Origin: a phage
Sequence record: PV730300.1
Length of the DNA stretch: 64,000 nt
Reading direction: 5' to 3' (one strand)
Within the stretch, counting starts at the first letter, position 1. Each line of letters starts with the position of its first letter. The notes under the pieces were generated by a model. That model did no database searches and had not been told where the DNA came from. It was given only the letters and a program-made list of their open reading frames with translations. A program made the position numbers and the translations under genes. This document shows, piece by piece, positions 1,763 through 56,451 of the stretch.

Positions 1763-2152
1763 ATGCGCAACCTGGTTTCTGTTTCTAACGTTGAAAAATT
1801 TCAATCCTTGCAGGGTATCGTTAACAACGTAGCGCCTTTTTTAGTCAAAGGCTTGATTGTAAAGATGAAAAATAAACATCATACGGCATGGTCTGCTTAT
1901 TGCTTTGATAATGATGAAAAAGCGGCTGAAATGATGTTAAATATGCTTTTGGATAGTGTAGAATCATCTTTACCGGAAAACATCGCAGAAGAGATCACCT
2001 ATCGTTATAATACGGCGATCACCTTTCAGGAGGTTGCACAATTCAACATGCTGGACGATGACGAACAACAAGATCAGGAAATGTTTTGGGAGTACGCGGA
2101 TCGTCAAGCGGCTTTTGATGAAAAGTTAGCGATGTATTATAACGAATATTAA
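1763..2152 (+). CDS. hypothetical protein (about 129 aa)
   Basis: Track ORF 1727..2152; ATG at 1763 preceded by AAAAAGG. Confidence 0.45.
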   Translation: MRNLVSVSNVEKFQSLQGIVNNVAPFLVKGLIVKMKNKHHTAWSAYCFDNDEKAAEMMLNMLLDSVESSLPENIAEEITYRYNTAITFQEVAQFNMLDDDEQQDQEMFWEYADRQAAFDEKLAMYYNEY

Positions 2153-2170
2153 TACACGGTAAAAGAAAGG

Positions 2171-2194
2171 GGGCGCACAAAGCGCCCTTTTTTG
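2171..2194 (+). terminator. rho-independent terminator (GGGCGC-ACAAA-GCGCCC + T-run)
   Basis: Perfect 6-bp GC stem followed by TTTTTT. Confidence 0.6.
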
Positions 2195-2626
2195 TATTCT
2201 TTTTTCACGATGGAAACAACACGTAAAGAATAGGCGTAAAGGTGGCGTAAAGGTGGCGTAAAACCATCTAAAACCGACTGTAACCGCTTAAACAAGGTGG
2301 CAATGATTAATCACCTTACCAGGATGAAAAAGCCGTTATAAAGCTATCTAGAGCGTTTAAAGCACATGGGAAATAATTTGCTTTTTATCTTGCCTTTTAT
2401 TCTGCTTTTGATTATTATTATGGAACGGGCGGCACCTGGGGACAGGTGAAGATAATCACCGGAAGATCCCGCTATATATCGATAGCTAATACCTATCAAA
2501 CAACAAAACATCAAAGAGATAAACTATCAAATCTTTACAATCCTACATATTGACCGATAAATCACAACAGTTTAATATTGTTTTTAGAGGGTAGAACATA
2601 CCCAAAACGAAAACAGGAAAAAGAAA

Positions 2627-2863
2627 ATGAAAGAAGTCATGATCCTCAAAAAATCACCTATTTTACGTGGTGGCTTTATCGCTTACTCCGATGATCTGTT
2701 AATTGCAACGGTTGCAAAAATACTAAAATCAGAAGAGGATAGTAAAAACGGCGTTTATCGTATCTGTTTCACCCGTGGGAAGTTGCAAGGTAAGATCGCT
2801 TATGCTTTTGATTTACAAGATGTAAACGATAAAATATGCGCTGTTATTGATTATGCGAAATAG
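2627..2863 (+). CDS. hypothetical protein (78 aa)
   Basis: ORF track; isolated ORF inside otherwise non-coding region. Confidence 0.35.
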   Translation: MKEVMILKKSPILRGGFIAYSDDLLIATVAKILKSEEDSKNGVYRICFTRGKLQGKIAYAFDLQDVNDKICAVIDYAK

Positions 2864-2927
2864 TTAATTTTCTTATTGACACCGGATCTACTCAATATAT
2901 GAAGCGTTATAATTGACAACAAAACAA

Positions 2928-2955
2928 GGGGGCGCACAAAGCGCCCTTTCTTTTT
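2928..2955 (+). terminator. rho-independent terminator (second copy of GGGGCGCACAAAGCGCCC hairpin)
   Basis: Near-identical hairpin to 2171-2194 followed by T-rich tract. Confidence 0.5.
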
Positions 2956-4537
2956 GCCCGAAAAATGTTGATAGCTTTCGCCTATGAAAAACCGACACAG
3001 AGCAAAACTGAATAAATCACGGTATCAAGCTAATCAACCATCAAATGAATAACCATACACCCCAGGGCAAAAGGCCGTCAGAGAGCTATTTATAGCGTTT
3101 AAAATCGATCAACAGCCAACAACAAACCATCAAAAACACCCTTTTACCTCCTTTCTAGTGCAATGATAACCATTATCATCTACCCATGATTATCTATGCA
3201 ATATAAGCGCATAGTTATAGTGTTGATAATAGTTCGCAACAACTAACCAACAAACAACATAAAACAATAAGCAAACTAATCATAATCAAAGGAATAATAG
3301 CAAGATGATTGATAACGGCAAACAATTAAACCGTGATGAATAGTAAGCAAAATAACGATAACACGACAAAACAACCAACTAACGAACAATAACAAACGAA
3401 ACCATTAAAATAATAACTATTGCCATAATAGTAACTGAATGAAATCATTACAAAACAAATCATTCCCAGGATCATCATTAGCACGCTATGCCGGACACAT
3501 AGCGAGCTAATAATAAGCCAACTACACCCCAACAATCATAACCATCGGTGATGGTTATTTCTTGTTACTGCGTAGCTTGCAATAATTGCAAGCGTAATGA
3601 CGCTTACACTTATTGCGCTGGCTTATTATTAGCATTATATGTAATTACCAAGATCATAACATTAGCGCAATAACAATAATCATTGTAATGGTTACAATAT
3701 GAAATCATTAGCAAGATGAATAATTGCACGTAGCAACATGAGCGAATAGCGACAGGTTGCATAGTGTGCACATAATAGAATAAAAGTCAATAATTTTGGG
3801 GGCGAAATGTTACCGCCAGGGGCGGGAATGTTGAGCACTAAGAAAAGAGATAAACCTTAATCATGGGGGGCGTAAATATCCGAGGATTGCCAACGGCGAT
3901 CCGGTAGGATGTTGAGCAAGTTCTCTTAAACGTAAATAAAATCAGAAAATTCTTGATTTATTTTAGTTTTTATGTTAATAAACGTTTAAATAATAATCAT
4001 TCTCATATAGATAATAGTCTGCTTGTCATGAGCGGGATCGGTTGACATTGTTCCGTCATATGATGAAGTTGCCAAACCATTGATAAATAAGTGTTTGTGT
4101 GATTTATAATCAAATGGCCCACCTTGTCGCTATGTTGGTATGAGCCTTGCATAAGTCATTGAATACAAATGATAATTATTCTCATTCGCATGATATTTGG
4201 GAATTGTCGCTGCGTGGACCTGACGGCCCGAAAATTCGCGTTAAGCACTTCTTACGTATGCGCCATGATTTTTGCCATATTATATTGATTCTATTAGATA
4301 TTCTTGCCATGATTGCCATGAAACAGGGTGTCCCGAAATAATCTCTCCCCGTAGATATTTTGGGTTACTTTTTATACAAGAGTAGGGTGTCAAAAATAAT
4401 CGGTATATATGGGATAATTGATAGGAATCCCCTATGATAATTCGATTGTAATTCCCTGAGATTGATCGTATGATGTTGGTAGATGTTAGTGATTGATGAT
4501 TGCCATGAAAGATGGCTAACGATGAGAGGAGATTATC

Positions 4538-4942
4538 ATGCAAGAGAGTAAAAATGTTCCGTTGAGCAGTATAGTATTGCTTCGATTCTACAAAGCATGG
4601 ATGGCTGATCACTTCAGTATGGATCGCACGAAGAATGGTCTGTGCAATTGTCTTATCAATTTCCTAGCCTCAACACTGCAACCTGAAAATCCGACAGAGG
4701 ACCAATGGATAACCTACTTGAAGGTGCGTAATAAGATTGTAAGAGAGATGAAATCTCAATTCATTTGTGCAAACCTGTCTTATGTCTTTCCATTTAACAT
4801 GGGATTCAAAGATTACGAAGACGAAACCAGATACAAAAGATGCCATGAAAATCCCCTCCGTGTGCAATGGGTGGAGGACAGAATTCAAGATTGTTTGAAT
4901 AATTATGAGGAGGTGTTATGCGAACAAAACAAGTCTCATTGA
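4538..4942 (+). CDS. hypothetical protein, member of 6-copy paralog family (GLCxCL / PFN / HxNxxRxxWVKD motifs)
   Basis: ORF track; RBS GAGAGGAG; shares motifs with ORFs at 4918, 8176, 11505, 14349, 15654. Confidence 0.55.
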   Translation: MQESKNVPLSSIVLLRFYKAWMADHFSMDRTKNGLCNCLINFLASTLQPENPTEDQWITYLKVRNKIVREMKSQFICANLSYVFPFNMGFKDYEDETRYKRCHENPLRVQWVEDRIQDCLNNYEEVLCEQNKSH

Positions 4943-5283
4943 GTAGTACGATGTTGTTGATGTTTTATAAAAGGTGGTTGGAAGGAGATACCTCCCTTAA
5001 TCTCACAGAGCACGGGTTGTGTTTATGTATTAATCATTTTGTGCGAAGTCATTATGCAAAGGATGTGCACAGTCCCAGATGGTATGATGACATGGTGAAC
5101 AGTTTGTTATATGAAATGCGCAAGCAATTTGAAGAAGCTGGTCTTAGTGCTATTAATCCATTTAACAAAGTATATGCAGATTACTTCCTTGAAGTTGAGA
5201 ACAAAATGTGTCATCTGAACCCGCTTCGCATTCAATGGGTGAAAGATCGTATTGAAGATGCAAATAATGCTTGCATTGAATAA
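4918..5283 (+). CDS. hypothetical protein, paralog family member
   Basis: LCLCI, NPFN, CHLNPLRIQWVKDRI motifs shared with 4538 ORF. Confidence 0.55.
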   Translation: MRTKQVSLSSTMLLMFYKRWLEGDTSLNLTEHGLCLCINHFVRSHYAKDVHSPRWYDDMVNSLLYEMRKQFEEAGLSAINPFNKVYADYFLEVENKMCHLNPLRIQWVKDRIEDANNACIE

Positions 5284-5342
5284 AAATGTCTGTATGATGG
5301 TTTGCATACCGCGCATAACAGATAGCCAATGAGGAGATTGAA

Positions 5343-5552
5343 ATGTCAAATATGAAAACTGTATCCTTGTATTTAGCTAACACTGATCGTGTGCACACCC
5401 TTGCTAACGCAAGTCGTGTACTCGTGCAGTTCCGAAACTTCGCACCGTCCGTTGTGACGGGTAGTGAAACGTGTGTGATCGATTTCATCAATGAATATTT
5501 CTACGGGAATCCTGTTGCTCGTCACTTCGTGGAGAATATGAAAGATGCATAA
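5343..5552 (+). CDS. hypothetical protein
   Basis: ORF track; RBS GAGGAG. Confidence 0.45.
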   Translation: MSNMKTVSLYLANTDRVHTLANASRVLVQFRNFAPSVVTGSETCVIDFINEYFYGNPVARHFVENMKDA

Positions 5553-5775
5553 CATGAAACGCATGAAAATTCGTATTGAGAATGATGGTGGTTATAAAGG
5601 ACTTATCCATGCAAAATTTCCACTTGTGTTGGAAGCTACGGTGGAATACAGTGGGCTTGCTCATGTGCGATTCTCGAAGATGATGGAAGTGCAGGAGTGG
5701 TTTTGGGACGAGATAGATGCACGAGAAGGGGAAGATTATGTTTTCTTTCCTCACGAATATGAAATTGTCTATTAA
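5545..5775 (+). CDS. hypothetical protein; paralog of 8886..9107 (shared EWFxxExxxxEGxDYVFF C-terminus)
   Basis: ORF track; C-terminal similarity to 8886 ORF. Confidence 0.5.
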   Translation: MHNMKRMKIRIENDGGYKGLIHAKFPLVLEATVEYSGLAHVRFSKMMEVQEWFWDEIDAREGEDYVFFPHEYEIVY

Positions 5776-5778
5776 AGG

Positions 5779-6027
5779 TTGTGTGCAATGATCACACCAC
5801 AACAGAATGAAGCAGCAATGGATCTTCTTGATAGTTTGTATTTCGATAATTGGTACTCTGAATGTGAATGGATGAATATGCAAACTCTGAAAGAGAAAAC
5901 AGAAGCGTTGATTACAGTAGATCAATTTCTTGCAGAGACGGAAAGAATGAACTATGATATGGCATCTCGCGCACGACGCGTTTCCATTTTCAATAAAATG
6001 TTAGCATTATGGGGAGGTAGAAAATGA
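5779..6027 (+). CDS. hypothetical protein
   Basis: ORF track. Confidence 0.45.
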   Translation: MCAMITPQQNEAAMDLLDSLYFDNWYSECEWMNMQTLKEKTEALITVDQFLAETERMNYDMASRARRVSIFNKMLALWGGRK

Positions 6028-6485
6028 GACAATTCACTATACTGGCAGCTTATGTGCAATGTGTTCACGATTATGTTAGTGCTCATATAGGTTTGCTGGA
6101 AGTTAATAGTAAAATTGAAGGCAATGTGGGTACTGTCTATGTGCAACATACTTTATCTATCGTGCCGTTTAAAGTGTTCAGTGTTGTAGCTGCCGATTAC
6201 AATCGTGTAGATGTGTGTTTCTTGGATCATAATTTTCGTAACGCACTAGATAATATCGAAGATTATCTTCCCGTGAAACCTTTGTCATTTCCACCGAGTC
6301 GTGCAAATAATGTAGTGACAAACCTTAATGAAAGGAATGTGGCTATGCACAAAAAAGTCCGTCAACTGAAAATGCTGATGGAAATGCAAGAAGAGATTGA
6401 AAAAGAACTGAAAGAAGATTTTGGTATGCTTCCAAAAGACGCTTTGAAATGGTATGATGAACTAGGAAGAGAAAGTTATGAATAA
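6024..6485 (+). CDS. hypothetical protein (153 aa)
   Basis: ORF track; ATGA overlap. Confidence 0.5.
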   Translation: MRQFTILAAYVQCVHDYVSAHIGLLEVNSKIEGNVGTVYVQHTLSIVPFKVFSVVAADYNRVDVCFLDHNFRNALDNIEDYLPVKPLSFPPSRANNVVTNLNERNVAMHKKVRQLKMLMEMQEEIEKELKEDFGMLPKDALKWYDELGRESYE

Positions 6486-6672
6486 AGGAACTACTGTATA
6501 TTTAGTAACAAAGAATACCCCAGGCTGGAGCCAATGCAGCACTGTCCCTTACAAGATCTGTGCAACATTAGAACTAGCACAACGTGCAGAAGCAGAAGTG
6601 GATGCCATGCGATACAGCTACGGTGAAATCATTCCTTTCACTCTTGAACAAGAAGGAGCATACAATGTTTAA
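6478..6672 (+). CDS. hypothetical protein
   Basis: ORF track. Confidence 0.4.
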   Translation: MNKGTTVYLVTKNTPGWSQCSTVPYKICATLELAQRAEAEVDAMRYSYGEIIPFTLEQEGAYNV

Positions 6673-6763
6673 AGAAGGTCATGTCTACCGTTTCCAGGAT
6701 GAAGTTTATAAACGTTTGGTTGTTGCTACCATCGGCGTATCTTTTGTTTAAAAGGGGAATGTT

Positions 6764-7201
6764 ATGTTTAAAGTTAATGCTGTTTACTGTTTCAAAACTA
6801 AAGCTGCCCGTGAAGCTTTCTCTATGATCTCTGATGAAAATTTCAAAATGGCAGCTTTGATTGAAGGGTCTTGTTTTCGCGTCGAAGATGTTAGTGAATC
6901 AGGCTCTGTTTGCTCATTGACTTTATTGGACAGCGGGGATATTATTGAAGCTGGACAGTATCCGTTCAGGAGTTGGGAGATATTGTTAGCTCGCGGAGAG
7001 CGTAACTTTTTTATGTGCGTGTCTGCGGGTGAAGTTGTGAAAGAAACTAAGGATGTTTCTGTTTACAATTCTGAATTTATAAGTTATAGTGAGTATCAAC
7101 ATCTGGAAGGCATTGTTGGTCACTTGTTATCTCTGATTGACGTTGAATGTGACCTGCCTGAATCATTGAAAGAAGAGTTGAAAGCATTAGATCTGTTATA
7201 A
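6764..7201 (+). CDS. hypothetical protein; C-terminus LIDVECDLPESLKEELKALDLL shared with 7528 ORF
   Basis: ORF track; RBS AAGGGGAA. Confidence 0.5.
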   Translation: MFKVNAVYCFKTKAAREAFSMISDENFKMAALIEGSCFRVEDVSESGSVCSLTLLDSGDIIEAGQYPFRSWEILLARGERNFFMCVSAGEVVKETKDVSVYNSEFISYSEYQHLEGIVGHLLSLIDVECDLPESLKEELKALDLL

Positions 7202-7228
7202 TGTTTCGCACAACGAAAGGAGAATAAG

Positions 7229-7528
7229 ATGAATCTGACCGAACAGTTACGCCGTATTGCAAAAGAAGCTTCCTTCAACTTCCCTGTTGAAGAAGTGATC
7301 GAGACTTGTTTTGCTGAAGCACGAGCGGGAAACTCTTCAAGAAATTTCACGCCATCCGATTTTGGTCTGGATAACTCCCCTACTCACCCAGGGGAAATCT
7401 ACAATCAGGTGAAATGGATGGATGAAGCAGTAGCAATTCTTCGTGAGCGTGGGCTTGTTGTTTATAAAGAAATGGACCTAAACGGAGCATACGAGTGGAT
7501 CACTATTGATTGGTCCGAGGTGAAATAA
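7229..7528 (+). CDS. hypothetical protein
   Basis: ORF track; RBS AAAGGAG. Confidence 0.5.
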   Translation: MNLTEQLRRIAKEASFNFPVEEVIETCFAEARAGNSSRNFTPSDFGLDNSPTHPGEIYNQVKWMDEAVAILRERGLVVYKEMDLNGAYEWITIDWSEVK

Positions 7529-7740
7529 TGGTTCTTGAACGTTATGACATTGAAGAAACGAGCAAAAACCCTTTTGCATCTTATCGTTGCATCGTAGAGG
7601 TTGACGAAGGGGATTATGTGTTGTATGATGATTACCAGAAGTTAGCCGAAGCCACCTCTTGGTTGGTTTCGATGCTGGATGTGGAGTGTGATCTTCCGCC
7701 TTCACTGAAAGAAGCACTTGAAGAGCTTGAAATTTTATAA
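7528..7740 (+). CDS. hypothetical protein; paralog of 6764 ORF C-terminus
   Basis: Track ORF 7510..7740 (GTG); ATG at 7528 after GAGGTG. Confidence 0.45.
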   Translation: MVLERYDIEETSKNPFASYRCIVEVDEGDYVLYDDYQKLAEATSWLVSMLDVECDLPPSLKEALEELEIL

Positions 7741-7751
7741 GAGGAGATCGT

Positions 7752-7985
7752 ATGAAAGGTAACAAGATGAAAGTTAATCAAGTGCCGAGCGCATACACCT
7801 TGTGGCTTGCGCGAGCGTTACACCAGACGATCAAAAATCCTAAGAAGCCAATGAAGAGCGGGAAGAAGTTTATGTCTAAGGGCAAAACAACCTTTGGCTT
7901 CACTCGTATGTCTGTTAAGATGAAAAGGCTGGGGTACAAGCCAAACTACGCTCGTTACCCTTCTGAATACAACTGGTTTGACTAA
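7752..7985 (+). CDS. hypothetical basic protein
   Basis: ORF track; RBS AGAGGAG. Confidence 0.45.
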   Translation: MKGNKMKVNQVPSAYTLWLARALHQTIKNPKKPMKSGKKFMSKGKTTFGFTRMSVKMKRLGYKPNYARYPSEYNWFD

Positions 7986-7998
7986 AAGGAGAAAGATT

Positions 7999-8175
7999 AT
8001 GGCTACTTTTCAACAACTGAAAGATGTTTCACGTTTAGTAAGAAAAATCCGAGAAGCAGACGCTGCTGTGCGGAATGCATTAACGCCAGCAGAGCGTGAA
8101 GATCTTGAAGAGGAGGTGAAAACAGCCGAGAATGCTTTTGCTGTGTATCTTTCAACACTGTATACAGGAGGTTAA
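7999..8175 (+). CDS. hypothetical protein
   Basis: Track ORF 7978..8175 (TTG); ATG at 7999 after AAAGGAGAAAG. Confidence 0.4.
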   Translation: MATFQQLKDVSRLVRKIREADAAVRNALTPAEREDLEEEVKTAENAFAVYLSTLYTGG

Positions 8176-8490
8176 ATGTCAGAAGAACTTAAAGAATTTT
8201 ATCAAGCATATCATAACTGGCTGTTAGCTGGTGCTCCAGATAATAATCCTTTCTGGCATGATAAAGGATTATGTAGTTGCCTCTACCTTTGGACTGGAGG
8301 TTATGATGATCTAAATTATGAAATGCAAATGCAATTCCGTGAGGCAGGATTGTCTGAAGAATACCCGTTTGATGACGGAGACTGGTTTAAATATGATTTT
8401 GCACAAAGAAACGGGCTATTGCATTTGAATGCTGCCCGTATAAAATGGGTAAAAGATCATGCTACACAGGAGGATGTGCAATGCCAATAG
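8176..8490 (+). CDS. hypothetical protein, paralog family member (GLCSCL, YPFD, RIKWVKDH)
   Basis: Motif sharing with 4538 family. Confidence 0.55.
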   Translation: MSEELKEFYQAYHNWLLAGAPDNNPFWHDKGLCSCLYLWTGGYDDLNYEMQMQFREAGLSEEYPFDDGDWFKYDFAQRNGLLHLNAARIKWVKDHATQEDVQCQ

Positions 8491-8681
8491 TGTTTAGTTT
8501 CTTGATAATTGTTATGGTTGTTCTTTTCGCGGCATGGCTTTGGGATTTTGACCCAGGAGCAGCGCAGCAAAGAGCTACAGACTGGAAAGAACAATGTATT
8601 GTGCTCAAACATGAACGAAATGCGGAGAAATTTCTTGACCTGGAGTGTGATCGCCTTGTAAGATACAAGCAAGATAAATAA
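8480..8681 (+). CDS. small membrane protein
   Basis: Track ORF 8445..8681; ATG at 8480 after AGGAGG; hydrophobic N-terminus. Confidence 0.4.
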
Positions 8682-8695
8682 CCTTGAGGTGCAAA

Positions 8696-8884
8696 ATGGT
8701 AATTGAGATTAAACTTGAATATGCTGGGGCTGTTGCCCTGATCGCACAAATGTTGGGAGCAAAGATTGAAGAAGTGTGTATCAATGCCTGGAGTGTAGAG
8801 ATTAATGTTCCTATGGATAACATTGCTAATCGCTTGCTGGTGGCAGAGTGTGAACGCACCAACATAATCTACAAAGGAGCATAA
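8696..8884 (+). CDS. hypothetical protein
   Basis: Track ORF 8684..8884 (TTG); ATG at 8696. Confidence 0.4.
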   Translation: MVIEIKLEYAGAVALIAQMLGAKIEEVCINAWSVEINVPMDNIANRLLVAECERTNIIYKGA

Positions 8885-8885
8885 T

Positions 8886-9107
8886 ATGAAAATTAGAGTT
8901 TGTGATGTATTGGGTTATGTTGGTTTTGAGAATGTTCAGATTCCTTTTGTTGTTGAAGCACATCTTGTTAGCGATGATATGACAACATTCTTTGTTACGA
9001 TAGAAGAAATGTCCAAAGTTGAGGGATGGGAGTGGTTTGAAGAAGATGTTTGGGAAGGTTGTGATTACGTATTTTTCTCTGATGAAGTGAATGTTCTTTC
9101 GGAGTAG
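8886..9107 (+). CDS. hypothetical protein; paralog of 5545 ORF
   Basis: ORF track; shared WEWFEEDVWEGCDYVFFSDE-type C-terminus. Confidence 0.5.
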   Translation: MKIRVCDVLGYVGFENVQIPFVVEAHLVSDDMTTFFVTIEEMSKVEGWEWFEEDVWEGCDYVFFSDEVNVLSE

Positions 9108-9109
9108 GT

Positions 9110-9316
9110 ATGTCTTGTTTTACGAAAGCAGTATCCATATGTAAGAAACAGTATGAAAGTGATTACGGAATATTTAATATTCCAGCAGATCATACGGAGT
9201 ATTGTTCATGTGGTGGCAGAATGAAGAAAACAGTGATTTATGCGGATAATGAAGATGAACTTGTTCCGGTTATGGTTTGCAAAGCTTGTCATTCTGTTAA
9301 AACATTAAAAGCGTAA
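9110..9316 (+). CDS. hypothetical Cys-rich protein (possible zinc ribbon)
   Basis: ORF track; CxC...CxxC spacing. Confidence 0.4.
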   Translation: MSCFTKAVSICKKQYESDYGIFNIPADHTEYCSCGGRMKKTVIYADNEDELVPVMVCKACHSVKTLKA

Positions 9317-9411
9317 GGAGTCGGGACACCCGACGATTGGAGCTAAAAATTTTGCGTACAACCCTTTCCGCCCAACAGGGGCGCGTCGGGTAAATAAAGA
9401 GGAGAGTTTAT

Positions 9412-9810
9412 ATGAAAAAGATCATCGTAGGTTTATTGTTACTCATTGCATCACTAGGAACAGCAAATGCGTCTCAAGTTTATGAGTGTGTGTCAGAGGT
9501 GGTTGTTAAAAATCTGAAAGGTGAAGTGATTTCTGGTCCTAAGAAAATGGCTTCTGTTGTCATTAATAAAGATAACTCTTTTATCCTTAAAAATTCAGGT
9601 GGTGCTTTGATGAGTGGCATTCTGCAATACACAGGAGAAAAAAGTAAAGATGGTAGTGCTATGTATGGTTCACAACAGTTTATTGGCACTACTAAAGTAG
9701 TAATGATGCGCACAGAGTATCGAGACACTTTGGCTTGGTTTGCATTTCTAAAAAATGATAAAACAATAACGAATGTTCTTACTCTAGAAGCTGATTGTAC
9801 GCAACGATAA
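9412..9810 (+). CDS. secreted protein with N-terminal signal peptide
   Basis: MKKIIVGLLLLIASLGTANA signal-like N-terminus; RBS AGAGGAGAG. Confidence 0.5.
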   Translation: MKKIIVGLLLLIASLGTANASQVYECVSEVVVKNLKGEVISGPKKMASVVINKDNSFILKNSGGALMSGILQYTGEKSKDGSAMYGSQQFIGTTKVVMMRTEYRDTLAWFAFLKNDKTITNVLTLEADCTQR

Positions 9811-9820
9811 GGGGGTATTT

Positions 9821-10267
9821 ATGACTAAAGTGCGACATTATGCTGTAAACTGCAATGATGTTTGGCGTTTGTGTCCTGATGATCCGACAGAAGGCACATT
9901 TGTAAAATATGAGGATTATAAAGAGTTATCGGATGCTGTGATCGCATTGTTAACCGATATCCGTTCACGTTATCCAGGACAAGATTTCACTTGCCCTCAC
10001 ATCAAACTTCTTGCTTGTCTGGTAGAAGGTGAGAAAGAAGTGGAAGATGGCTTCAAGCGTGTAGAGTATCAAGGTGAAATTTTAGAGGTTCCTGAATTTG
10101 TTAATTATATTGCAACAGATTCGAGTGGCGAGCGTTATGGCTACAGCCATAAGCCAGAGATTCCTGATTGGATTCCCGCTTGGAGATATTCCGTTAGTAC
10201 CGGAGACTATATCTTCCTTGGTGTAGGTAGTAGTAAGGATTGGCGGTTCTCTTTGACAGAGGTTTAA
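9821..10267 (+). CDS. hypothetical protein (148 aa)
   Basis: ORF track; RBS AAGGGGG. Confidence 0.5.
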   Translation: MTKVRHYAVNCNDVWRLCPDDPTEGTFVKYEDYKELSDAVIALLTDIRSRYPGQDFTCPHIKLLACLVEGEKEVEDGFKRVEYQGEILEVPEFVNYIATDSSGERYGYSHKPEIPDWIPAWRYSVSTGDYIFLGVGSSKDWRFSLTEV

Positions 10268-10271
10268 TAAT

Positions 10272-10535
10272 ATGGAAGAAACATTGCCAGCAGCATATCG
10301 TTTGAATGATGAGCGTATTTGGGAGTGGACCGACGTTTCTTGTTTTTACCCTGAAATAGTTCAATATTGGCGAGCGAAAGGGTGTGTTGTAGTTATCAAC
10401 CCTTGTGGACCAGTAGATGAAGATTGCTTGTATCTCGATGGGAAGTGGCACAGTTATTGTCGCTGGCCTTTTGAGTGGATGTGTAAAGAAGATCTCCCAG
10501 AGGGTTGGGAGTATCCAAAAGCAAATAGGAGATAA
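10272..10535 (+). CDS. hypothetical Cys/Trp-rich protein
   Basis: ORF track. Confidence 0.45.
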   Translation: MEETLPAAYRLNDERIWEWTDVSCFYPEIVQYWRAKGCVVVINPCGPVDEDCLYLDGKWHSYCRWPFEWMCKEDLPEGWEYPKANRR

Positions 10536-10536
10536 T

Positions 10537-10899
10537 ATGTCTAAAGATTTTGTTGAAGTATTTGTCAAAGATGAAGAAACTGGTTTAGGCACGGATTTCA
10601 TTTGTGAAGAAACTTTTAAGCGTGAACAAGAAAAAGCTATTCTTATGCACCGCTATGATCATGCACTAGAACAATGGAAAAATGCAGAACAAAAATGCAA
10701 AAACCTTTACGCAGAAAATAGAAAACTACAAGATCAAATGGAGTTGTTAGCTATCAGTTTACGATCTCTCATTTTGGCTGTAGAAGATGGCTTTAAAAAT
10801 CCAGATGGTTTTCCTGTGAGCGATATTGAACATGATTTGTATCTTGCTCGTGGTGCTTACTTTTATGTTAAACAGAAGTCTGTAGAAGGAGAGAAATGA
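10537..10899 (+). CDS. hypothetical protein (coiled-coil rich)
   Basis: Track ORF 10417..10899; ATG at 10537 after AATAGGAG. Confidence 0.45.
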   Translation: MSKDFVEVFVKDEETGLGTDFICEETFKREQEKAILMHRYDHALEQWKNAEQKCKNLYAENRKLQDQMELLAISLRSLILAVEDGFKNPDGFPVSDIEHDLYLARGAYFYVKQKSVEGEK

Positions 10900-11072
10900 T
10901 GGAAGAAAAACTGGAACGTATTATCGAGTTAGCCATGTCTATTGGCTACGACGATTGTTTTCTCCAAACCATTGGAGAATCAGAGAAAGATTACGACTCT
11001 TGGGTGAAAGAGTTGGAAGAACTCAAAACTTCCTTGATTGCTGACTTTGCTGAAGCAGAGGAGGATGAATAA
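10896..11072 (+). CDS. hypothetical small acidic protein (58 aa)
   Basis: Own translation; ATGA overlap with upstream and TAATG with downstream gene; below track cutoff. Confidence 0.35.
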   Translation: MMEEKLERIIELAMSIGYDDCFLQTIGESEKDYDSWVKELEELKTSLIADFAEAEEDE

Positions 11073-11299
11073 TGTCGGATTATAACTGGTATGAACTTGA
11101 AGCTGTTTGTCAGTTTTATGATTCAATAGTTCTACGTGATCCAATCTGTCAAGAATTAAGTCGCCGTGCAAGTGCATTGGCAATCCGTGTTAAAATAAAT
11201 GGTTGGGACGCAGATCTGGAAAAAGAATTGGAATTCCTTTTGGAAACAACTCGTGTCTTCCGTAAAGTATTCCCTCAATGGTTTAAGATGGAGGAATAA
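11072..11299 (+). CDS. hypothetical protein
   Basis: ORF track; RBS GAGGAGG. Confidence 0.5.
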   Translation: MSDYNWYELEAVCQFYDSIVLRDPICQELSRRASALAIRVKINGWDADLEKELEFLLETTRVFRKVFPQWFKMEE

Positions 11300-11301
11300 T
11301 C

Positions 11302-11514
11302 ATGTGGATTGTCCGTCTTAAGTATGATGGCAAGTTTCCGTGGGAGAAAGATGTTTGTGCCTGTGATTCGGCAGCACATGCCAAAGCAGCGGGTCAGGCA
11401 GTAGTTGACATGTATAACAACACTTCCGTTGATCCAGAAATGGGAGGTGTTACAATGAGCATGTTCACTTACTATTCTTTTGAGGTTTACTATCATGAAG
11501 GAGAGTGGAAATGA
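11302..11514 (+). CDS. hypothetical protein
   Basis: ORF track. Confidence 0.45.
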   Translation: MWIVRLKYDGKFPWEKDVCACDSAAHAKAAGQAVVDMYNNTSVDPEMGGVTMSMFTYYSFEVYYHEGEWK

Positions 11515-11831
11515 GCGAAGAACTATTAACATTTTACCGCACGTATTTGGCATGGTTGGAAGCTGGTGCTCCTGAAGGTGAACCGTTCACCCGTTGCACA
11601 GGATTGTGCTCGAACCTCTATGATTTTTACGATATAGGGGAAAACGAACGATACGAACCTGTACTGGATGAAATGCATGAGCAGTTCTACCGCAAAGGTT
11701 TGGTTATGGTGTTGCCTTTCAACAGTAATTTTGGAAAGTACACCTTAGAAGCGGAAAGAAGCCGTTGTCATTTGAATGTGGATCGTGTGAACTGGGTAAA
11801 AGAACGTGTAGCAGAAGAAATAATTGGTTGA
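11505..11831 (+). CDS. hypothetical protein, paralog family member (GLCSNL, LPFN, RCHLNVDRVNWVKER)
   Basis: Motif sharing with 4538 family. Confidence 0.55.
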   Translation: MEMSEELLTFYRTYLAWLEAGAPEGEPFTRCTGLCSNLYDFYDIGENERYEPVLDEMHEQFYRKGLVMVLPFNSNFGKYTLEAERSRCHLNVDRVNWVKERVAEEIIG

Positions 11832-11856
11832 CAGAAGGATCTGTCTTTGTCATAAT
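11828..11856 (+). promoter_or_regulatory. sigma70-like promoter (TTGACA-N17-CATAAT)
   Basis: Upstream of 11886 CDS. Confidence 0.4.
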
Positions 11857-11885
11857 CATCTCATCGAAACAGAGAGGAGAAAATC

Positions 11886-12299
11886 ATGAAACAGTTTATC
11901 TGCACCCGTTCCACTAACAGTGATATCCTTGTAGGTAAGGTTATCAAAGGAGAACTCTTCCATGCAAACGGTAAGAAATATATTCTGCTGAAAGATTCTT
12001 TCAACGGGGAATATCCGCGCTGCACTTTCTTCAATTACAACACTCCGTTTGCTTTAGAAGGAGATGCTTGGGAATGGGCTGAACTCAATCCTTGTTGTGA
12101 GGAAGAAGAATCTATGTTCTTAGGTTTAAACGTTTACCGTGTAGATTACACCATGTGCGGAGCGGAACATTCTGTTCGCGTAGAAGCCGAATCCAAACTA
12201 CAAGCACCTTTCAAGGCGGGATTGACTTTGGGTCATTGTTTGGCAAACATTGAAGATGTTGTGATCCAAAGGGTTGTTTTAGAGAAAGAGGCTATTTGA
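11886..12299 (+). CDS. hypothetical protein (137 aa)
   Basis: ORF track; RBS AGAGGAGAA. Confidence 0.5.
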   Translation: MKQFICTRSTNSDILVGKVIKGELFHANGKKYILLKDSFNGEYPRCTFFNYNTPFALEGDAWEWAELNPCCEEEESMFLGLNVYRVDYTMCGAEHSVRVEAESKLQAPFKAGLTLGHCLANIEDVVIQRVVLEKEAI

Positions 12300-12351
12300 C
12301 AGAAGACGGCACAATATTTAAATATAAAGATTAACCACAAAGGAGATAGAT

Positions 12352-12651
12352 ATGCAAGTTGAAGACCTGATCAAAATTTTGAATGAAGCCAAAGAGAAAG
12401 GTGCTATCAAGGACTGGAAACGTGAAACAAGTGAAGACCTATCTCACTGTTGCCGAGAATTTTACATCGAAGGTATTGCTGACGATCATTATATTATCGA
12501 ATGGTATATCAACTTAATGACTCTTAAGCACGGTTCGTTTGAGGTTTGGTTTGATGACATTGATGTAAATGGTTTTCATCCTGGCTATAAAATCGCTATG
12601 CAGTTGTCTTATCGTAGAGAAGTTGTAGCACATTTGGGTTTACATAATTAA
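12352..12651 (+). CDS. hypothetical protein
   Basis: ORF track; RBS AAAGGAG. Confidence 0.5.
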   Translation: MQVEDLIKILNEAKEKGAIKDWKRETSEDLSHCCREFYIEGIADDHYIIEWYINLMTLKHGSFEVWFDDIDVNGFHPGYKIAMQLSYRREVVAHLGLHN

Positions 12652-12661
12652 GGAGAAAAGA

Positions 12662-12985
12662 ATGCAAGCAGTTGTTAACGAAGCTATTATGAACTTATCC
12701 TTCTTGTTAGCTGGTTTAGGAGGTGTTCTCATAGGTTTGGCTCTTATCTGGTGTATTCGTCGATTAATCGGGTACCGACAAAAAGGTGTTTCATGTTTTG
12801 TATCTTACAATTTTACAACTGCTTACAGCAATGAGGTTGGATCTGGCAATGCTCAAGCATTTTTACCAACATATCCTCCTACGGTGGAAGATATTCGAAA
12901 CTTGGAAGTAGAACTTATGGGACTAAGTGATAACTATACATCTCTCGTTATTCAAAATATTTTTCGACTAAAACAGGAGGCGTGA
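12662..12985 (+). CDS. membrane protein (N-terminal TM helix)
   Basis: ORF track; hydrophobic segment LSFLLAGLGGVLIGLALIWCI. Confidence 0.45.
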   Translation: MQAVVNEAIMNLSFLLAGLGGVLIGLALIWCIRRLIGYRQKGVSCFVSYNFTTAYSNEVGSGNAQAFLPTYPPTVEDIRNLEVELMGLSDNYTSLVIQNIFRLKQEA

Positions 12986-13198
12986 ATGAAGGCACATTAC
13001 CCTCATCCCTTTGATCCTAAAAACAAAGCCGTAATTCTTCGTCAGTGGCAACGGGTTTGTCGTACTAAATGTCCAATTAATAGCCAACACGATGTGGACA
13101 AGGACTATCTTGGGACATTTGTTGAATACACTTACATAGACAAAAACAAGCGTAAACAACATGTCGAGGAATACTGCTTAAGAGTAGAATGGCTGTAA
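12986..13198 (+). CDS. hypothetical protein
   Basis: ORF track. Confidence 0.45.
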   Translation: MKAHYPHPFDPKNKAVILRQWQRVCRTKCPINSQHDVDKDYLGTFVEYTYIDKNKRKQHVEEYCLRVEWL

Positions 13199-13210
13199 AT
13201 AATAAATACC

Positions 13211-13239
13211 TTGACAAGTGTTTATTCGTTTTGTAAAGT
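13211..13239 (+). promoter_or_regulatory. sigma70-like promoter (TTGACA-N17-TAAAGT)
   Basis: Same -10 hexamer as promoters at 307 and 879; upstream of recombinase gene. Confidence 0.45.
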
Positions 13240-13268
13240 GAGAATACAGCAATGGTTTAGGAGTGGTT

Positions 13269-13940
13269 ATGAAAAAGTTTGTTGTTTACAGTCGTCTTTC
13301 TAAACAGAAAAAAGGTGAGGCACAATATGGTATGGAGAGCCAAGAGAACGATATCCGTTACTTCTTAGACTCTGTGCCTGATGCGGAAGTTATTGGTCAA
13401 TTTTCTGAATACTATTCGGGTAAGGGCGATTGGAAGCAACGTAAAGAACTGGTTAAAGCGGTTGAAATGTGTAAAGCTACCGGAGCAACTTTATTGGTAG
13501 CTAAAGTTGACCGCTTGGGTCGTAACAACGCCTCCGTAGCAACTCTTCTGGAGATGATCAATGTTAAGATAGCCATCATGCCAGACGCAGATAAAATGGT
13601 TATACAGCTTCTATCTGTTCTGGCTGAACAAGAAGTTAGAGGTATTGCTGATCGTATTAAAAAGGGTCTTGCTGTAGCAAAAAGTAAAGGTGTTTTATTA
13701 GGTAGTGCTAATCCTAAAACTGCCGCTGCACGTAGAAAAGGAAAAATGGAATACAACTCTGTTAAAGCAGATGCTTTTGCAGAGACATTCCGTGAACGCT
13801 TGGAGATCCTTAGAGATTTAAATACACCTTACAAAACTATTGCTGAAAAATTCAATAGTAAGAAAATAGCAACAGCACGTGGTGGTAAATGGGATGCTAA
13901 AACTGTTTCTCGTTTGTGTGCCAGACTTAACATTAAATAG
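13269..13940 (+). CDS. serine recombinase (resolvase/invertase family) with C-terminal HTH
   Basis: YSRLSKQ catalytic-Ser region, VAKVDRLGRN, EQEVRGIADRIKKGL motifs typical of small serine recombinases. Confidence 0.65.
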   Translation: MKKFVVYSRLSKQKKGEAQYGMESQENDIRYFLDSVPDAEVIGQFSEYYSGKGDWKQRKELVKAVEMCKATGATLLVAKVDRLGRNNASVATLLEMINVKIAIMPDADKMVIQLLSVLAEQEVRGIADRIKKGLAVAKSKGVLLGSANPKTAAARRKGKMEYNSVKADAFAETFRERLEILRDLNTPYKTIAEKFNSKKIATARGGKWDAKTVSRLCARLNIK

Positions 13941-13948
13941 GAGAGGAT

Positions 13949-14359
13949 ATGAAACAAGAAAATGAATCTGTAGATCACTTAATCATGCTGTCAGCCCTTT
14001 TTGCCGGATGGGACGTATTTTTTGAAAATTTGTTCAATTCTGCTACAGATGGTTCCGATTTTATGCGGCAGTTTAAACGACGAACTGTTGAGGACTATGC
14101 TTTCTATTCAGGTCGGATTGAAAAAGGTTACGAAGATACAAATACAACACTCACCATTAAAGTTTTAGATGTGATGTTTAGTGTTATAGATGCTATCGAC
14201 GAAAGTCTTCCGATCCTAGACAATTGTAATACGAAAGCCTATGTTTACAAAATAGCTCGTGCTTATGTGTCTGCAAACAGTTGTCTTCTTTCCACCCAGA
14301 TTGCCGTGAACAATCTTGCCAACTTGTTTGATGAAGGAGAAACTTTTTATGACAATTGA
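13949..14359 (+). CDS. hypothetical protein
   Basis: ORF track; RBS GGAGAGGA. Confidence 0.5.
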   Translation: MKQENESVDHLIMLSALFAGWDVFFENLFNSATDGSDFMRQFKRRTVEDYAFYSGRIEKGYEDTNTTLTIKVLDVMFSVIDAIDESLPILDNCNTKAYVYKIARAYVSANSCLLSTQIAVNNLANLFDEGETFYDN

Positions 14360-14714
14360 TTTGAAGTGTAAGAGGATTCTTTTAGATTTCTATAATAATT
14401 GGTTAGAACACCTCCGTCTTTTTCCAAGAGAAAGTGGTTACGCTGATGTTGGCTTATGCCGAGGTCTACGTATGTATATAAGTGATGAATTTCGGGCCGA
14501 GCATTCTTTAGCATATTCTGTTTATGGTATGCAATTAGCCAGTTTTGAAAACGCTGGTTTAGATACAACTTTCCCATTTAACACAGCAAAATCTTTTGAG
14601 CAAGAGTGTAAGGAAAAACGTTGCATGTTTAATGAAAAACGTGTACAGTGGGTTAAGGATCAAGTTAAACAATTGGAACAAGAGTTGGATTTCTTTTATG
14701 ATGAGGCAGAATAA
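14349..14714 (+). CDS. hypothetical protein, paralog family member (GLCRGL, FPFN, RVQWVKDQ)
   Basis: Track ORF 14316..14714; ATG at 14349 after GAAGGAGAA. Confidence 0.5.
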   Translation: MTIDLKCKRILLDFYNNWLEHLRLFPRESGYADVGLCRGLRMYISDEFRAEHSLAYSVYGMQLASFENAGLDTTFPFNTAKSFEQECKEKRCMFNEKRVQWVKDQVKQLEQELDFFYDEAE

Positions 14715-14986
14715 TGGATAGACAAACCTTAAAAACAATGGCAGATGCTACTAATTCCCCGTACTTTGAAAAAGTAAGTAAATTGGTAGCTCAAGCCGCA
14801 GAGGAAGGATATTATAACATAAACATCCACAACCCAAGTCTTATACTAGAAATGCCAAGTGATAAGAAGATGCAAGAAAGTATCTGTGAAGGTATTGTTA
14901 GTTACTGGCGCGAGCGTGGGTGTGGTGCAAACATGGCTTTAGACAGTGCAAACATTGTAAGATATATAAATATTTCTTGGGGGTGA
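14714..14986 (+). CDS. hypothetical protein
   Basis: ORF track. Confidence 0.45.
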   Translation: MDRQTLKTMADATNSPYFEKVSKLVAQAAEEGYYNINIHNPSLILEMPSDKKMQESICEGIVSYWRERGCGANMALDSANIVRYINISWG

Positions 14987-14990
14987 TTTT

Positions 14991-15602
14991 ATGATTCAAT
15001 GCACTCATATCCAAATTACTTGGAGAGATGAACTTTACCATTTGGGACAATTTACTGTAGGGGAAACATACCCTATCATTAAACATAATCCTAACATCGT
15101 AAACTTTGACAGGATGGTTCTTGTTGAGGATGATCTAGGTCAAACTTATTCTTTAGATCTAAAATGTCCGTTTTCTTACGGCTACGATTGGATCGTTACT
15201 TTTGAAGACGTGGAGGAAAATAAAACAATGAACGAAAAAAATTCTTGGTATTATCGTTGTGAACTGCCGCCAGTAGGTGAAAAGGTTATCTTTGTTCCTG
15301 ACTTGGAAAGATATTCTTGGGACAGTTCTTATTCTATTCCTAAAGAAGGCACCGAAGTTGAAGTTATTGCACATCGCACAACTTCGCATGGTAACGATGT
15401 AGCAGTTGTTTTCTGGGATGATGAAGGCGCTGCTTGTGCAGGTGGCTTTGTTGCAGGTAATTTTGAACCCCTGCCAGATCCTTTGAAGGAGGCAATTTTA
15501 GGCGTAGCTTCTTTTGGACTCTCTTACACGTCTGCACAGGAGATCGTAGAAGGTATTTTAAACGGTACCGTTCCAAACGAAATTTTCAAACAGATTAAAT
15601 AA
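14991..15602 (+). CDS. hypothetical protein (203 aa)
   Basis: ORF track. Confidence 0.5.
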   Translation: MIQCTHIQITWRDELYHLGQFTVGETYPIIKHNPNIVNFDRMVLVEDDLGQTYSLDLKCPFSYGYDWIVTFEDVEENKTMNEKNSWYYRCELPPVGEKVIFVPDLERYSWDSSYSIPKEGTEVEVIAHRTTSHGNDVAVVFWDDEGAACAGGFVAGNFEPLPDPLKEAILGVASFGLSYTSAQEIVEGILNGTVPNEIFKQIK

Positions 15603-28257: not shown

Positions 28258-28583
28258 TTATCCTCCTCAAAATCTAAGAAAATAAAAATATTCACCTTTC
28301 CTTCAATCTCTTGTTCTAAAACAAGATCGGCAAATTCTGCATAAGCTTTCTCTTCAACTTTTTCAATATGTTCTGCGGCATCTTTAAAAGGCGTATCCCC
28401 ATCCACCTTTACTAATAAGAAAAGAGATCGCATTTCGACGTTTTTACTGTTACGAGGAAGGAAATCTACAGCTTCAACAATTCTCCAACCCAAATAGCCA
28501 GGGGTTTTATGAATCTCCCCTAAATACTTTTCTAAGATTTTACGACCCTCGTCGATAAGGGCTTGTTCTGTAGTAATTTCCAT
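28254..28583 (-). CDS. hypothetical protein
   Basis: ORF track; ATGA overlap. Confidence 0.45.
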   Translation of the reverse strand: MEITTEQALIDEGRKILEKYLGEIHKTPGYLGWRIVEAVDFLPRNSKNVEMRSLFLLVKVDGDTPFKDAAEHIEKVEEKAYAEFADLVLEQEIEGKVNIFIFLDFEEDK

Positions 28584-28593
28584 TCCTTCCTCC

Positions 28594-29184
28594 TCAAATT
28601 ATTAACGAAACCGCATGACTAAATCTTGGTTCAGATATAACCTCTGCTACAGTCACATATGTATCGTGCAGCCAAAAAGATTCTACTCTACAAACACAAA
28701 TACCGTTGATAATGAAATCTACACAGGATTTATTATTTTCGCACACCTGTTGACTATAAACAACCCCTAAAGAGTCATAAAGTGATCTCACTGTTGCTAC
28801 CATTTCATCTGTTTCGTCTTCCTGTGAAACAAAGAAAACGAATACAGACAAGTTGTTAGCGAAAGTACTGCTATTCTCTACTTCAACCGACTTACAAGGT
28901 AAAAAGGAGTAATATTTACCGTTAGGTATCAATTTCGCCTCAACCTGGTTAAGTATGCTTTGAGATGGTTTTGTTACATAAAAAAGATTTTCTGTTGGGT
29001 TTTCAACATTGCTCCTTACTATGCAACGAGTGGGGTTCGAAGGATCAAAAACATGATCAAAATCGACACACACAGGTAAGTTAACAACTTTAAACTTTTT
29101 GCTAAGAATGCTTACTGCTGTAAAAATCAAACCAGCATTTATTTTGCCAGTGAAAGTTGAACGCATAACTACTCCTCGGATCAT
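28594..29184 (-). CDS. hypothetical protein (196 aa)
   Basis: ORF track. Confidence 0.45.
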   Translation of the reverse strand: MIRGVVMRSTFTGKINAGLIFTAVSILSKKFKVVNLPVCVDFDHVFDPSNPTRCIVRSNVENPTENLFYVTKPSQSILNQVEAKLIPNGKYYSFLPCKSVEVENSSTFANNLSVFVFFVSQEDETDEMVATVRSLYDSLGVVYSQQVCENNKSCVDFIINGICVCRVESFWLHDTYVTVAEVISEPRFSHAVSLII

Positions 29185-56044: not shown

Positions 56045-56046
56045 AC

Positions 56047-56346: not shown

Positions 56347-56355
56347 TATAAGTAT

Positions 56356-56446: not shown

Positions 56447-56451
56447 GATTA

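Follow-up and report, generated by a model that had tools for sequence, protein, structure and literature searches.

Background

Why should the dense packing of genes in a phage genome stop, and what occupies the space where it does? The question is raised by a 64,000-nucleotide stretch of sequence record PV730300.1 (hereafter the window, numbered 5' to 3' from its first letter). In this stretch a preliminary description, made from the letters alone, had reported that the packing of open reading frames (ORFs) stops between 2.2 and 4.5 kb, in a region of skewed strand composition, palindromes and short direct repeats that was suggested to be a replication origin, a protein-binding array or the template of a non-coding RNA (ncRNA). 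A megablast search with positions 2200-4530 matched 121 phage records, nearly all of them ~150-kb myoviruses of the genus Phapecoctavirus or of other Stephanstirmvirinae, at 90-96% identity. The source of the window is a Phapecoctavirus genome, that of a phAPEC8-like Escherichia coli phage, a virulent ~150-kb myovirus. The gap in its gene map is very probably the genome terminus, or concatemer junction, of a linear DNA with short direct terminal repeats (DTRs), an identity for the region that is well supported by the evidence set out below.

The interruption of gene packing stands for 2951-4537, a true ORF-free gap of 1587 bp, and falls for 2200-2950, where a duplicated segment and a real gene (2627-2863) are found. 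In relatives the gap is unannotated: in phage ASO2A, for example, no gene is annotated in the homologue of 2951-4537, which has a terminator on one side and the next coding sequence (CDS) on the other. Similarly, a gene-free gap of 1.5-2.0 kb occupies the syntenic place in 11 further Stephanstirmvirinae relatives inspected, making 12 of 12 genomes with ASO2A. The comparisons extend over five lineages, namely Phapecoctavirus, the phiWec179 group, Justusliebigvirus/phi92, a group of Klebsiella phages and the Citrobacter phage Tr1. The features listed in the preliminary description are all present, with small coordinate offsets, and it was right to see a non-coding, cis-acting region with palindromes and repeats of a protein-binding type; it was partly supported, in that the main identity of the region, a terminus and concatemer junction, was missed.

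Fixed ends and a direct terminal repeat

Several relatives' records break inside the gap, and the positions at which they do so define the repeat. In the Schickermooser and WPEC4 records, identical sequences of 328/329 bp stand at both ends; they correspond to window positions 3915-4243, the 329-bp DTR, of which the collapsed assembly of the window has one copy. A terminal repeat of 328 bp has been reported for Schickermooser (Korf et al. 2019, PMC6563267) and one of 342 bp for BME3 (PMC12210895). The records of Schickermooser, WPEC4 and Ro121lw all begin at AGCAAGTTCTC (AGCAAG, window 3915), that of Ro121lw ending at ...ATGTTG, and the Mt1B1_P17 record begins on the other strand at window 4242, the right cut. 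In phi92, a Justusliebigvirus, the annotated DTR-R begins ...TTTGTTG|AGCC and ends ...AAAATCGCGTTA (CGCGTTA), where the bar marks the cut, and the BME3 record begins within 1 nt of the phi92 right-cut site. Altogether, six records that were deposited independently have a terminus at GTTG|AGC or CGCGTTA|AGC (to within 1 nt in one case), as is expected of fixed, non-permuted ends. The same sequence is found at both ends in close relatives, and is predicted for the phage of the window, which has one collapsed copy. In its last part (146300-147371) the BME3 record has N bases and bears a 'DTR-L' annotation at variance with the repeat that the motifs define; it is apparently mis-joined near the terminus.

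The two boundaries are marked by related motifs, ATGTTG|AGC at the left cut and CGCGTTA|AGC at the right cut (after 4243), both conserved in the five lineages. When the last TGTTGAGC ahead of CGCGTTAAGC is taken, the predicted repeats are 329, 331-332, 343, 344 and 321 bp long in these lineages, and the predictions match the published lengths of 328, 343 and 342 bp, which come from two genera. On the left, record starts and hairpin analysis define cut modules on the plus strand at 3796-3918, each comprising a GC hairpin followed by ATGTTG|AGC. The cut motifs of the two copies (3828-3837 and 3909-3918) are the exact ATGTTGAGCA repeats that had been noticed near 3830-3915. The left physical end falls within the second copy and is predicted at 3915. 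This second copy was produced by an 81-bp duplication (3834-3914) that is absent from Schickermooser and Ro121lw; in WPEC4, where the left-cut motif is likewise present twice, the copy closer to the repeat is used. Four of the five lineages have, immediately upstream of the left cut, a GC hairpin whose sequence varies.

A compact right-cut module and its copies in E. coli chromosomes

At the right boundary, invariant boxes and record ends delimit a candidate packaging-signal module of ~85 bp on the plus strand (4188-4271), composed of GATATTTG, ~38 nt, TCGCGTTA|AGC and a further ~25 nt. The boxes GATATTTG and TCGCGTT, ~38 nt apart, are invariant in five phage lineages and in four chromosomal islands (alignment A2). 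In a search of 5426 complete E. coli genomes with 3440-4260, 242 matched 4188-4271 only, over 70-81 bp at 81-84% identity (81 bp at 84%). A Justusliebigvirus-type junction of 46 bp, centred on the cut, is found at 93-96% identity in 467 of the 5426, and the two sets may overlap. In the three genomes inspected, the Phapecoctavirus-type match lies inside a 12-13 kb island at a tRNA gene, and the Justusliebigvirus-type junction occupies the same position in the same island backbone. In the plasmid collection there were only two short matches, both to the right-cut module.

The islands are integrated at tRNA-Leu or tRNA-Thr (that of F5505-C1 spans 2700-15180 of the stretch examined) and carry genes for a tyrosine integrase, for an O-like replication initiator, which has iterons of its own, for a Dit-like tail protein and for tape-measure-like and capsid-like proteins; a gene for a small serine recombinase is often present as well. 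The Dit-like protein is 61-65% identical to a Stephanstirmvirinae protein, and the capsid-like protein had no tblastn match in the phage collection. At the nucleotide level, the right-cut module is the only similarity between the islands and the phage terminus regions, and for the window this holds over the whole 64 kb. Such small integrated elements, with an integrase, a replication module and only a few structural-like genes, have the make-up expected of satellites, and the family looks like an undescribed satellite of virulent Stephanstirmvirinae; literature searches for the subfamily found nothing on satellites. The sequence TACGAGGTTGAGCCTG is present in four of four islands (at 14925, 14171, 14188 and 15158 of the respective stretches), at a distance of ~130-170 nt from the tRNA. 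Its likeness to GTTG|AGCC, the left-cut motif of Justusliebigvirus, could mean a second cut site or be due to chance.

This distribution bears on the function of the module. The PLE satellite shares 89 bp at 71% identity with the pac site of its helper ICP1, a similarity needed for transduction (bioRxiv 10.1101/2024.04.22.590561). Because the islands mimic 4188-4271 in the same pattern of helper pac mimicry, which is independent if indirect evidence, we infer that the module is the terminase recognition and cleavage signal, a reading to which the invariant boxes around the right cut lend further indirect support.

Proposed use of the terminus in packaging and entry

To the right of the repeat, a predicted early promoter and leader region of the left end extends over 4244-4537 (plus strand), as identified by promoter scan, repeat family D12, k-mer enrichment and cross-genus alignment. 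It includes two sigma-70-like sites, TTGCCA-18-AATAAT (4313-4342) and TTGTAA-17-TATGAT (4446-4474), both on the plus strand, and a block conserved in the cross-genus alignment (4401-4431). Boxes of ATGATTGCCATGAAA are repeated at 4309-4323 and 4496-4510 (also 4304-4312), upstream of the first early gene, and may be operators or leader elements. Cross-genus conservation is seen for the copy that precedes the start codon by ~30 nt (GATGWTTGYCATGAAAGAT). Inside the repeat there is also an invariant -35-like TCTTGATTT at 3951-3959. Literature searches found no transcriptome for this subfamily.

In the scheme proposed here, the terminase would recognise the ~85-bp right module in replicated concatemers and cut there, and the related GTTG|AGC site 329 bp upstream would give the other end, so that each packaged genome would have the repeat at both ends. 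The left end would probably enter the cell first at infection, whereupon host RNA polymerase could start at the promoter-like sites in or just right of the repeat and continue into the rightward early genes, the first of which starts at 4538. The gene-free right end would be the ~960 bp to the left of the repeat (2951-3914). There a terminator and a G-poor tract resembling a Rho utilisation (rut) site would stop rightward transcripts before the end, and a folded single-strand element of 165 nt with ATTAGC iterons may serve in repeat duplication, in priming or replication, or as an RNA. In T7 the early promoters are located at the end that enters the cell first, and the layout of 4244-4537 is consistent with the same arrangement.

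A number of points weigh against the identification of a terminus used in this way. The window has a single copy of the repeat, so its own ends are predicted from relatives at 90-96% identity, and the choice of left-cut copy in this phage is likewise predicted, from WPEC4. The word GTTRAGCA was considered as an over-represented motif and rejected, as five occurrences were found in the window against 5.0 expected; the weight of the cut motif therefore comes from its position and cross-genus conservation. Terminase binding, cutting chemistry and packaging direction are predictions, the direction by analogy with what is generally known of T7, and the promoter calls are putative, being consensus matches only. 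Finally, the sequence shared with the islands could reflect some other common function, and their status is that of candidate satellites.

A covarying folded core in the right end

The stretch of the gap best conserved across genera is 3478-3642, which largely coincides with a single-copy structured core of 165 nt (3472-3635, without assigned strand). An alignment of 22 distinct homologues drawn from phage records, IMG/VR and metagenomes (alignment A1) gives support to four helices, both by RNAalifold and by explicit counts of pairs. These are H1, a 7-bp hairpin (3484-3490/3498-3504); P1, a long-range helix of 15 bp whose arms are 98 nt apart (3506-3520/3619-3633); H2, a 9-bp hairpin whose stem sequence is replaced outright in some lineages (3538-3546/3550-3558); and H3, formed by the palindrome GCTTGCAATAATTGCAAGC (3575-3582/3586-3593). 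The palindrome, placed at 3578-3594 by the preliminary description, is real at 3575-3593 and invariant in the 22 homologues. A CTAC/GTAG helix (3522-3525/3572-3575) is also possible. Looser pattern scans of IMG/VR and metagenomes returned some unrelated chance matches, which were discarded, and an alternative 3' hairpin in place of H3 received no support from the alignment.

In the alignment 95.4% of cells are paired, as against 26-49% when partners are slid by 1-3 columns; 14 pairs are changed on both sides, as against 3-6 in the slid controls; and the covariation score is 0.217, as against 0.02-0.05. None of 500 shuffles reached the observed values. Folding relative to shuffles gave z = -7.1, -8.6 and -7.9, for either strand and with DNA parameters. 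Inverted repeats are accordingly far beyond chance, with z of -7 to -8.6 for 3472-3640 against dinucleotide shuffles, and the multiple palindromes first reported from this region are genuine. A covariance model of the core scored 181.7 bits at its single match in the 64-kb window, there being no second copy, and the element is found subfamily-wide, in 133 phage records. Hairpins have been inserted at one site in a lineage-specific manner, in Justusliebigvirus and KP2025. The core is a real single-stranded nucleic-acid element, either RNA or DNA; that it is a new structured element with a testable role is a well-supported conclusion.

Neither the strand nor the choice of RNA or DNA can be read from the pairs themselves, because H1 and P1 have no wobble pairs, being 100% Watson-Crick, and the G.U and C.A cells of H2 are balanced; calling the transcribed strand from G.U against C.A pairs was uninformative for this reason. 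The core was looked for in the islands and no copy was found. As these copy the cut module without the core, the latter is probably not needed for terminase recognition or packaging. A joint proposal can be made for the two elements. The right-cut module would be a true packaging signal, copied in helper-specific versions (Phapecoctavirus and Justusliebigvirus types) by an unrecognised family of E. coli satellites, a counterpart of PLE and ICP1. The 165-nt core would be a new single-strand element, of DNA or RNA, needed at the genome end for duplication of the repeat or for priming. The conjunction is plausible, its chances falling somewhat short of even.

Iterons, composition and replication

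Around the core, between 3443 and 3715, are iterons of two types, without assigned strand: ATTAGC at 3477, 3506 (inverted), 3628, 3661 and 3707, and AATCATT at 3443, 3458, 3678 and 3703. Five copies of ATTAGC in 240 bp compare with a background of 0.4 per kb, and the locus has the highest count (five) in any 320-nt stretch of the window. The core is further flanked by a direct repeat (3409-3482 and 3672-3743). In Justusliebigvirus (muut 1932-1993, arall 3580-3613), tandem units of ~16 nt, GTAATCATTTCATAC, annotated as a repeat_region, lie just upstream of the core. They share an ATCATT centre with the window iteron ATGAAATCATTAGC, and have TCAT (ATGA when reverse-complemented) as the other flank, so that the two look like the opposing halves of one palindrome.

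To the left of the core, the plus strand of 2951-3471 forms a G-poor, A/C-rich spacer of the right end (G 12%, C/G 1.7), with conserved blocks at 2995-3039 and 3160-3225. The composition of 3000-3480 is 45% A, 21% C, 12% G and 22% T, and nowhere in the 64 kb does a 480-nt interval exceed in A+C content the one that starts at 2988 (0.675; mean 0.506, standard deviation 0.034). The strand skew first reported for this tract is therefore upheld, whereas its 'CAA/AAC repeats' are a compositional bias and not a true tandem array. Tandem Repeats Finder (TRF) detected only a weak 10-nt array (3108-3137), and periodicity, rejected as an explanation of the tract, is only weak (lag-3 autocorrelation z = 4). 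The tract is also unstructured as RNA (z = -0.3). The polarity is conserved: in 11 of 11 genomes, the top strand has 9-14% G and a C/G ratio of 1.3-2.0 from the terminator to the core and a C/G ratio of 0.5-0.9 from the core onward, even where the sequences are unalignable. Such a pattern fits a rut-like zone stopping rightward read-through, divergent transcription or a local origin.

It is possible that the core and iterons (about 3440-3720) constitute a replication origin or single-strand priming signal, at which an initiator would bind ATTAGC/AATCATT and from which forks or primers would diverge, although we regard this reading as rather unlikely. The combination of iterons with an easily melted region is found here, the iterons being enriched ~30-fold, variable in number between genera and flanked by AT-rich sequence. 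Hairpins with compensatory changes require a single-stranded state. The 100% Watson-Crick H1 and P1, free of G.U, are as expected of DNA hairpins, and the switch from G-poor on the left to C-poor on the right of the core has the polarity expected around a bidirectional origin, although it could equally stem from divergent transcription or a rut-like function. That islands with an initiator and iterons of their own copy the cut module and not the core also accords with a role in replication. Against these observations, the cumulative GC skew, a check that the preliminary description had proposed and that was computed here over the window, takes its extreme values at 20,370 and 54,600, the places where the genes change orientation, and not at the gap. 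Moreover, the region contains no perfect DnaA box, one-mismatch boxes occur at background rate, the spacing of the iterons is irregular, and no initiator gene is adjacent to the core. Thus, neither a genome-scale skew switch nor DnaA boxes speak for the suggested origin, and what keeps it alive is the local switch from G-poor to C-poor at the folded core.

A possible structured non-coding RNA

The same fold might instead be the gene of a new structured ncRNA, transcribed from one strand near the genome end and consisting of the hairpin H1 and then a multi-branch loop closed by a 15-bp helix. We consider this improbable on balance. A multi-helix fold with helix arms 98 nt apart would be hard to form in duplex DNA, and the 14 pairs changed on both sides, the covariation well above that of slid partners, the folding z of -7 to -8.6, the single-copy, subfamily-wide distribution and the lineage-specific hairpin insertions also count in its favour; a conserved fold with compensatory changes, the hallmark of structured ncRNAs, is present. 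By contrast, a search of Rfam 15, one of the checks originally proposed, matched only tRNAs in the window at the gathering threshold, and nothing between 2100 and 4700 even at E<=1. On neither strand is there a promoter or a U-rich terminator whose distance from the core is conserved. In particular, H2 was ruled out as an intrinsic terminator, as its U-rich tail is not conserved. The wobble pairs favour neither strand, and transcript data were not found in the literature searched. The idea of an ncRNA template is consequently retained in so far as a covariation-supported fold of 165 nt exists, and has neither a conserved promoter or terminator as a frame nor an Rfam match.

Fur-box-like palindromes

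A further set of elements within the gap resembles the binding sites of the host iron regulator Fur. Three sites, none with an assigned strand, match the 7-1-7 Fur motif TGATAATnATTATCA at 12-13 of 14 positions: TGATAACCATTATCA (13/14) at 3164-3178, and two palindromes inside the repeat, at 3991-4005 and 4170-4184. The remaining 62 kb have only two other 12/14 sites, and none of 500 Markov shuffles gave three. When the 19-bp consensus GATAATGATAATCATTATC (PMC3788343) was used, five of the 10 sites matching at >=14/19 were in the gap. The first site is found ~205-250 nt past the terminator in 11 of 12 genomes (it is absent in Tr1), one or two more lie inside the repeat, and Justusliebigvirus has a perfect 14/14 site there.

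These AT-rich palindromes, which agree with the Fur-box consensus, are enriched and are conserved in position across the 12 genomes, could be operators for host Fur. They might either gate a promoter in the repeat, one site being 30-50 nt downstream of the invariant -35-like TCTTGATTT, or titrate Fur such that iron-uptake genes are derepressed. Both ideas are doubtful. Fur binding is a prediction from sequence; AT-rich promoter DNA resembles Fur boxes in any case; the AATCATT centre is common to palindromes and iterons, so one phage-encoded protein could bind both; and the literature search gave no report of Fur control in these phages. The early suggestion of a protein-binding array is supported by the predicted sites collectively, namely the cut-site motifs, the ATTAGC iterons and the Fur-box-like palindromes.

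That the region is non-functional filler, made of decayed genes and low-complexity DNA, is scarcely credible: much of 3226-3470 and 3640-3900 is unalignable between genera and 2150-2540 is a decaying duplicate, but the reading is contradicted by the conserved blocks, the compensatory changes, the cut motifs at mapped ends, the conserved compositional polarity, the retention of a 1.5-2.0 kb gap in 12 of 12 genomes from five lineages and the mimicry by islands.

Flanking genes and the duplicated segment

The gap is bounded on the left by a Rho-independent terminator, AGGGGGCGCACAAAGCGCCCTTT (2927-2949, plus strand), which was identified by terminator scan, is kept across genera and is annotated in ASO2A and Schickermooser; it closes the last transcription unit ahead of the right end of the genome. 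On the other side, the first early gene past the left end (4538-4942, plus strand) encodes 134 amino acids (aa), belongs to phrog_2510 and is the first annotated gene in the Schickermooser and Ro121lw records. Two mechanically called ORFs in between, 3326-3535 and 4280-4612, both on the minus strand, were rejected as genes, having no PHROG family and not being kept across genera. A scan for tRNA and tmRNA genes found none within the gap region; elsewhere in the window, a plus-strand tRNA cluster at 55970-57895 comprises 10 genes according to ARAGORN or 11 according to Rfam.

The segment 2200-2950 arose later, when the start of the gap was duplicated and a small accessory gene came in with the copy. 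Local alignment and the repeat families D4, D5 and D8 identify 2150-2540 (plus strand) as a diverged duplicate of 2910-3289, that is, of the terminator and the start of the right-end non-coding region. The alignment score is 117, compared with 47.8 +/- 6.8 (maximum 73) for shuffles, and the terminator scan finds a terminator at 2165-2193 within the duplicate. The direct repeat GGTGGCGTAAA, first placed at 2231-2262, is present as two exact copies in 2241-2262, with a degenerate third copy just upstream. TRF describes the array as 3.5 tandem copies of GGCGTAAAGGT (2222-2262), upstream of the accessory gene. The same array resembles GGGGGCGTAAA at 3866-3876, beside the left-cut module.

The accessory gene, of the 'moron' type (2627-2863, plus strand), encodes 78 aa and is flanked by two near-identical terminators. 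By tblastn its product is found in 28 phage records, at 99-100% identity in some Justusliebigvirus and Phapecoctavirus genomes, and with homologues of 56-66% aa identity in unrelated Enterobacter and Pantoea myoviruses and a Klebsiella siphovirus; a PHROG search with the protein gave no family. Such near-identity between genomes that otherwise differ strongly points to a recent horizontal exchange of this terminator-flanked cassette.

Two observations concern the records of relatives. When positions 1-1500 of the WPEC4 record are set against window 3915-4659 and 28505-28910, only ~730 bp separate the left end from sequence that in the window is at ~28.5 kb; that phage therefore lacks a ~24-kb block of small early genes or has it at another place. 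Host labels are probably unreliable for several records of the MG0656xx series named 'Campylobacter phage' and for single 'Acinetobacter' and 'Pseudomonas' phage entries, all of them nearly identical in sequence to E. coli Stephanstirmvirinae.

Implications

Phages similar to phAPEC8 and phi92 are common candidates for phage therapy, and their cis-acting DNA signals are undescribed. Exact ends, cut motifs and a compact candidate packaging signal would allow their genomes to be correctly oriented and annotated, and the signal would also allow transducing or biocontained particles to be engineered, for which there is precedent in T7. A packaging signal would further help to predict which DNA is mobilisable by these phages. 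Similarly, the island family suggests that elements with the capacity to exploit these virulent phages, or to block them, are present in many E. coli strains, which, if so, has a bearing on both the efficacy of phage therapy and horizontal gene transfer. What is said here on how the DNA is cut, on what the core does and on the islands as satellites is inference, to be distinguished from the identity of the region.

Comparison with known systems

The putative operators agree with the E. coli Fur box in having the 7-1-7 inverted repeat TGATAATnATTATCA and similarity to the 19-bp consensus, and differ in being located at the terminus of a virulent phage rather than in an iron-uptake promoter, and in sharing their core with phage iterons. 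In its dimensions, the folded element is similar to single-strand initiation signals and hairpin origins (the G4 origin, the phiX-type primosome sites and the M13 minus-strand origin), which likewise comprise several hairpins in ~100-170 nt and, as would the element, function in the single-stranded state alone; this is a matter of resemblance only.

The relationship of the islands to the phage recalls the pac mimicry of PLE and ICP1 (also P4 and SaPIbov5), both in the extent of the similarity, 46-81 bp at 84-96% identity around the packaging site, and in the fact that a small element bearing an integrase and a virulent myovirus have no other nucleotide similarity. The helper in the present case, however, has exact DTR ends instead of headful packaging from a pac site. 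Furthermore, unlike PLE, P4 and the phage-inducible chromosomal islands (PICI), the islands, which are known here from their sequences, encode Dit-like, tape-measure-like and capsid-like proteins.

A DTR terminus is in itself a known kind of feature, and the repeat has already been reported for the subfamily. The closest counterparts are the DTRs of phi92 (Justusliebigvirus) and Schickermooser (Phapecoctavirus), which belong to the same subfamily and share the syntenic gap, the position of the repeat and the boundary motifs; where they differ is in what has been recorded, as the published work consulted and the database records say that the repeat is present and how long it is (328, 342 and 343 bp), and no more. 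The accessible literature was found to contain no description, for this subfamily, of shared cut motifs, a compact right-cut module, a folded core, iterons or Fur-like boxes, and nothing on the conserved compositional switch or on E. coli islands copying the module.

More distantly, T7 and T3 have a short exact terminal repeat, flanking arrays of short repeats and strong early promoters just inside the left end. The phage studied here is similar in having a short exact terminal repeat with flanking repeat arrays and predicted promoters just inside the left end. As at the T7/T3 concatemer junction, a candidate recognition element lies beside the repeat and there are cut sites at both repeat boundaries; in T7, Pac consists of PacB, bound by TerS, and PacC, cut by TerL (PMC9860248). 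The sequences are unrelated, and the repeat is 329 bp here as against 160 bp in T7/T3. The present phage is also a 150-kb myovirus in which no T7-type promoters were seen, and which, in contrast to T7 and T3, has ~1 kb of gene-free DNA with a folded element on the right-end side.

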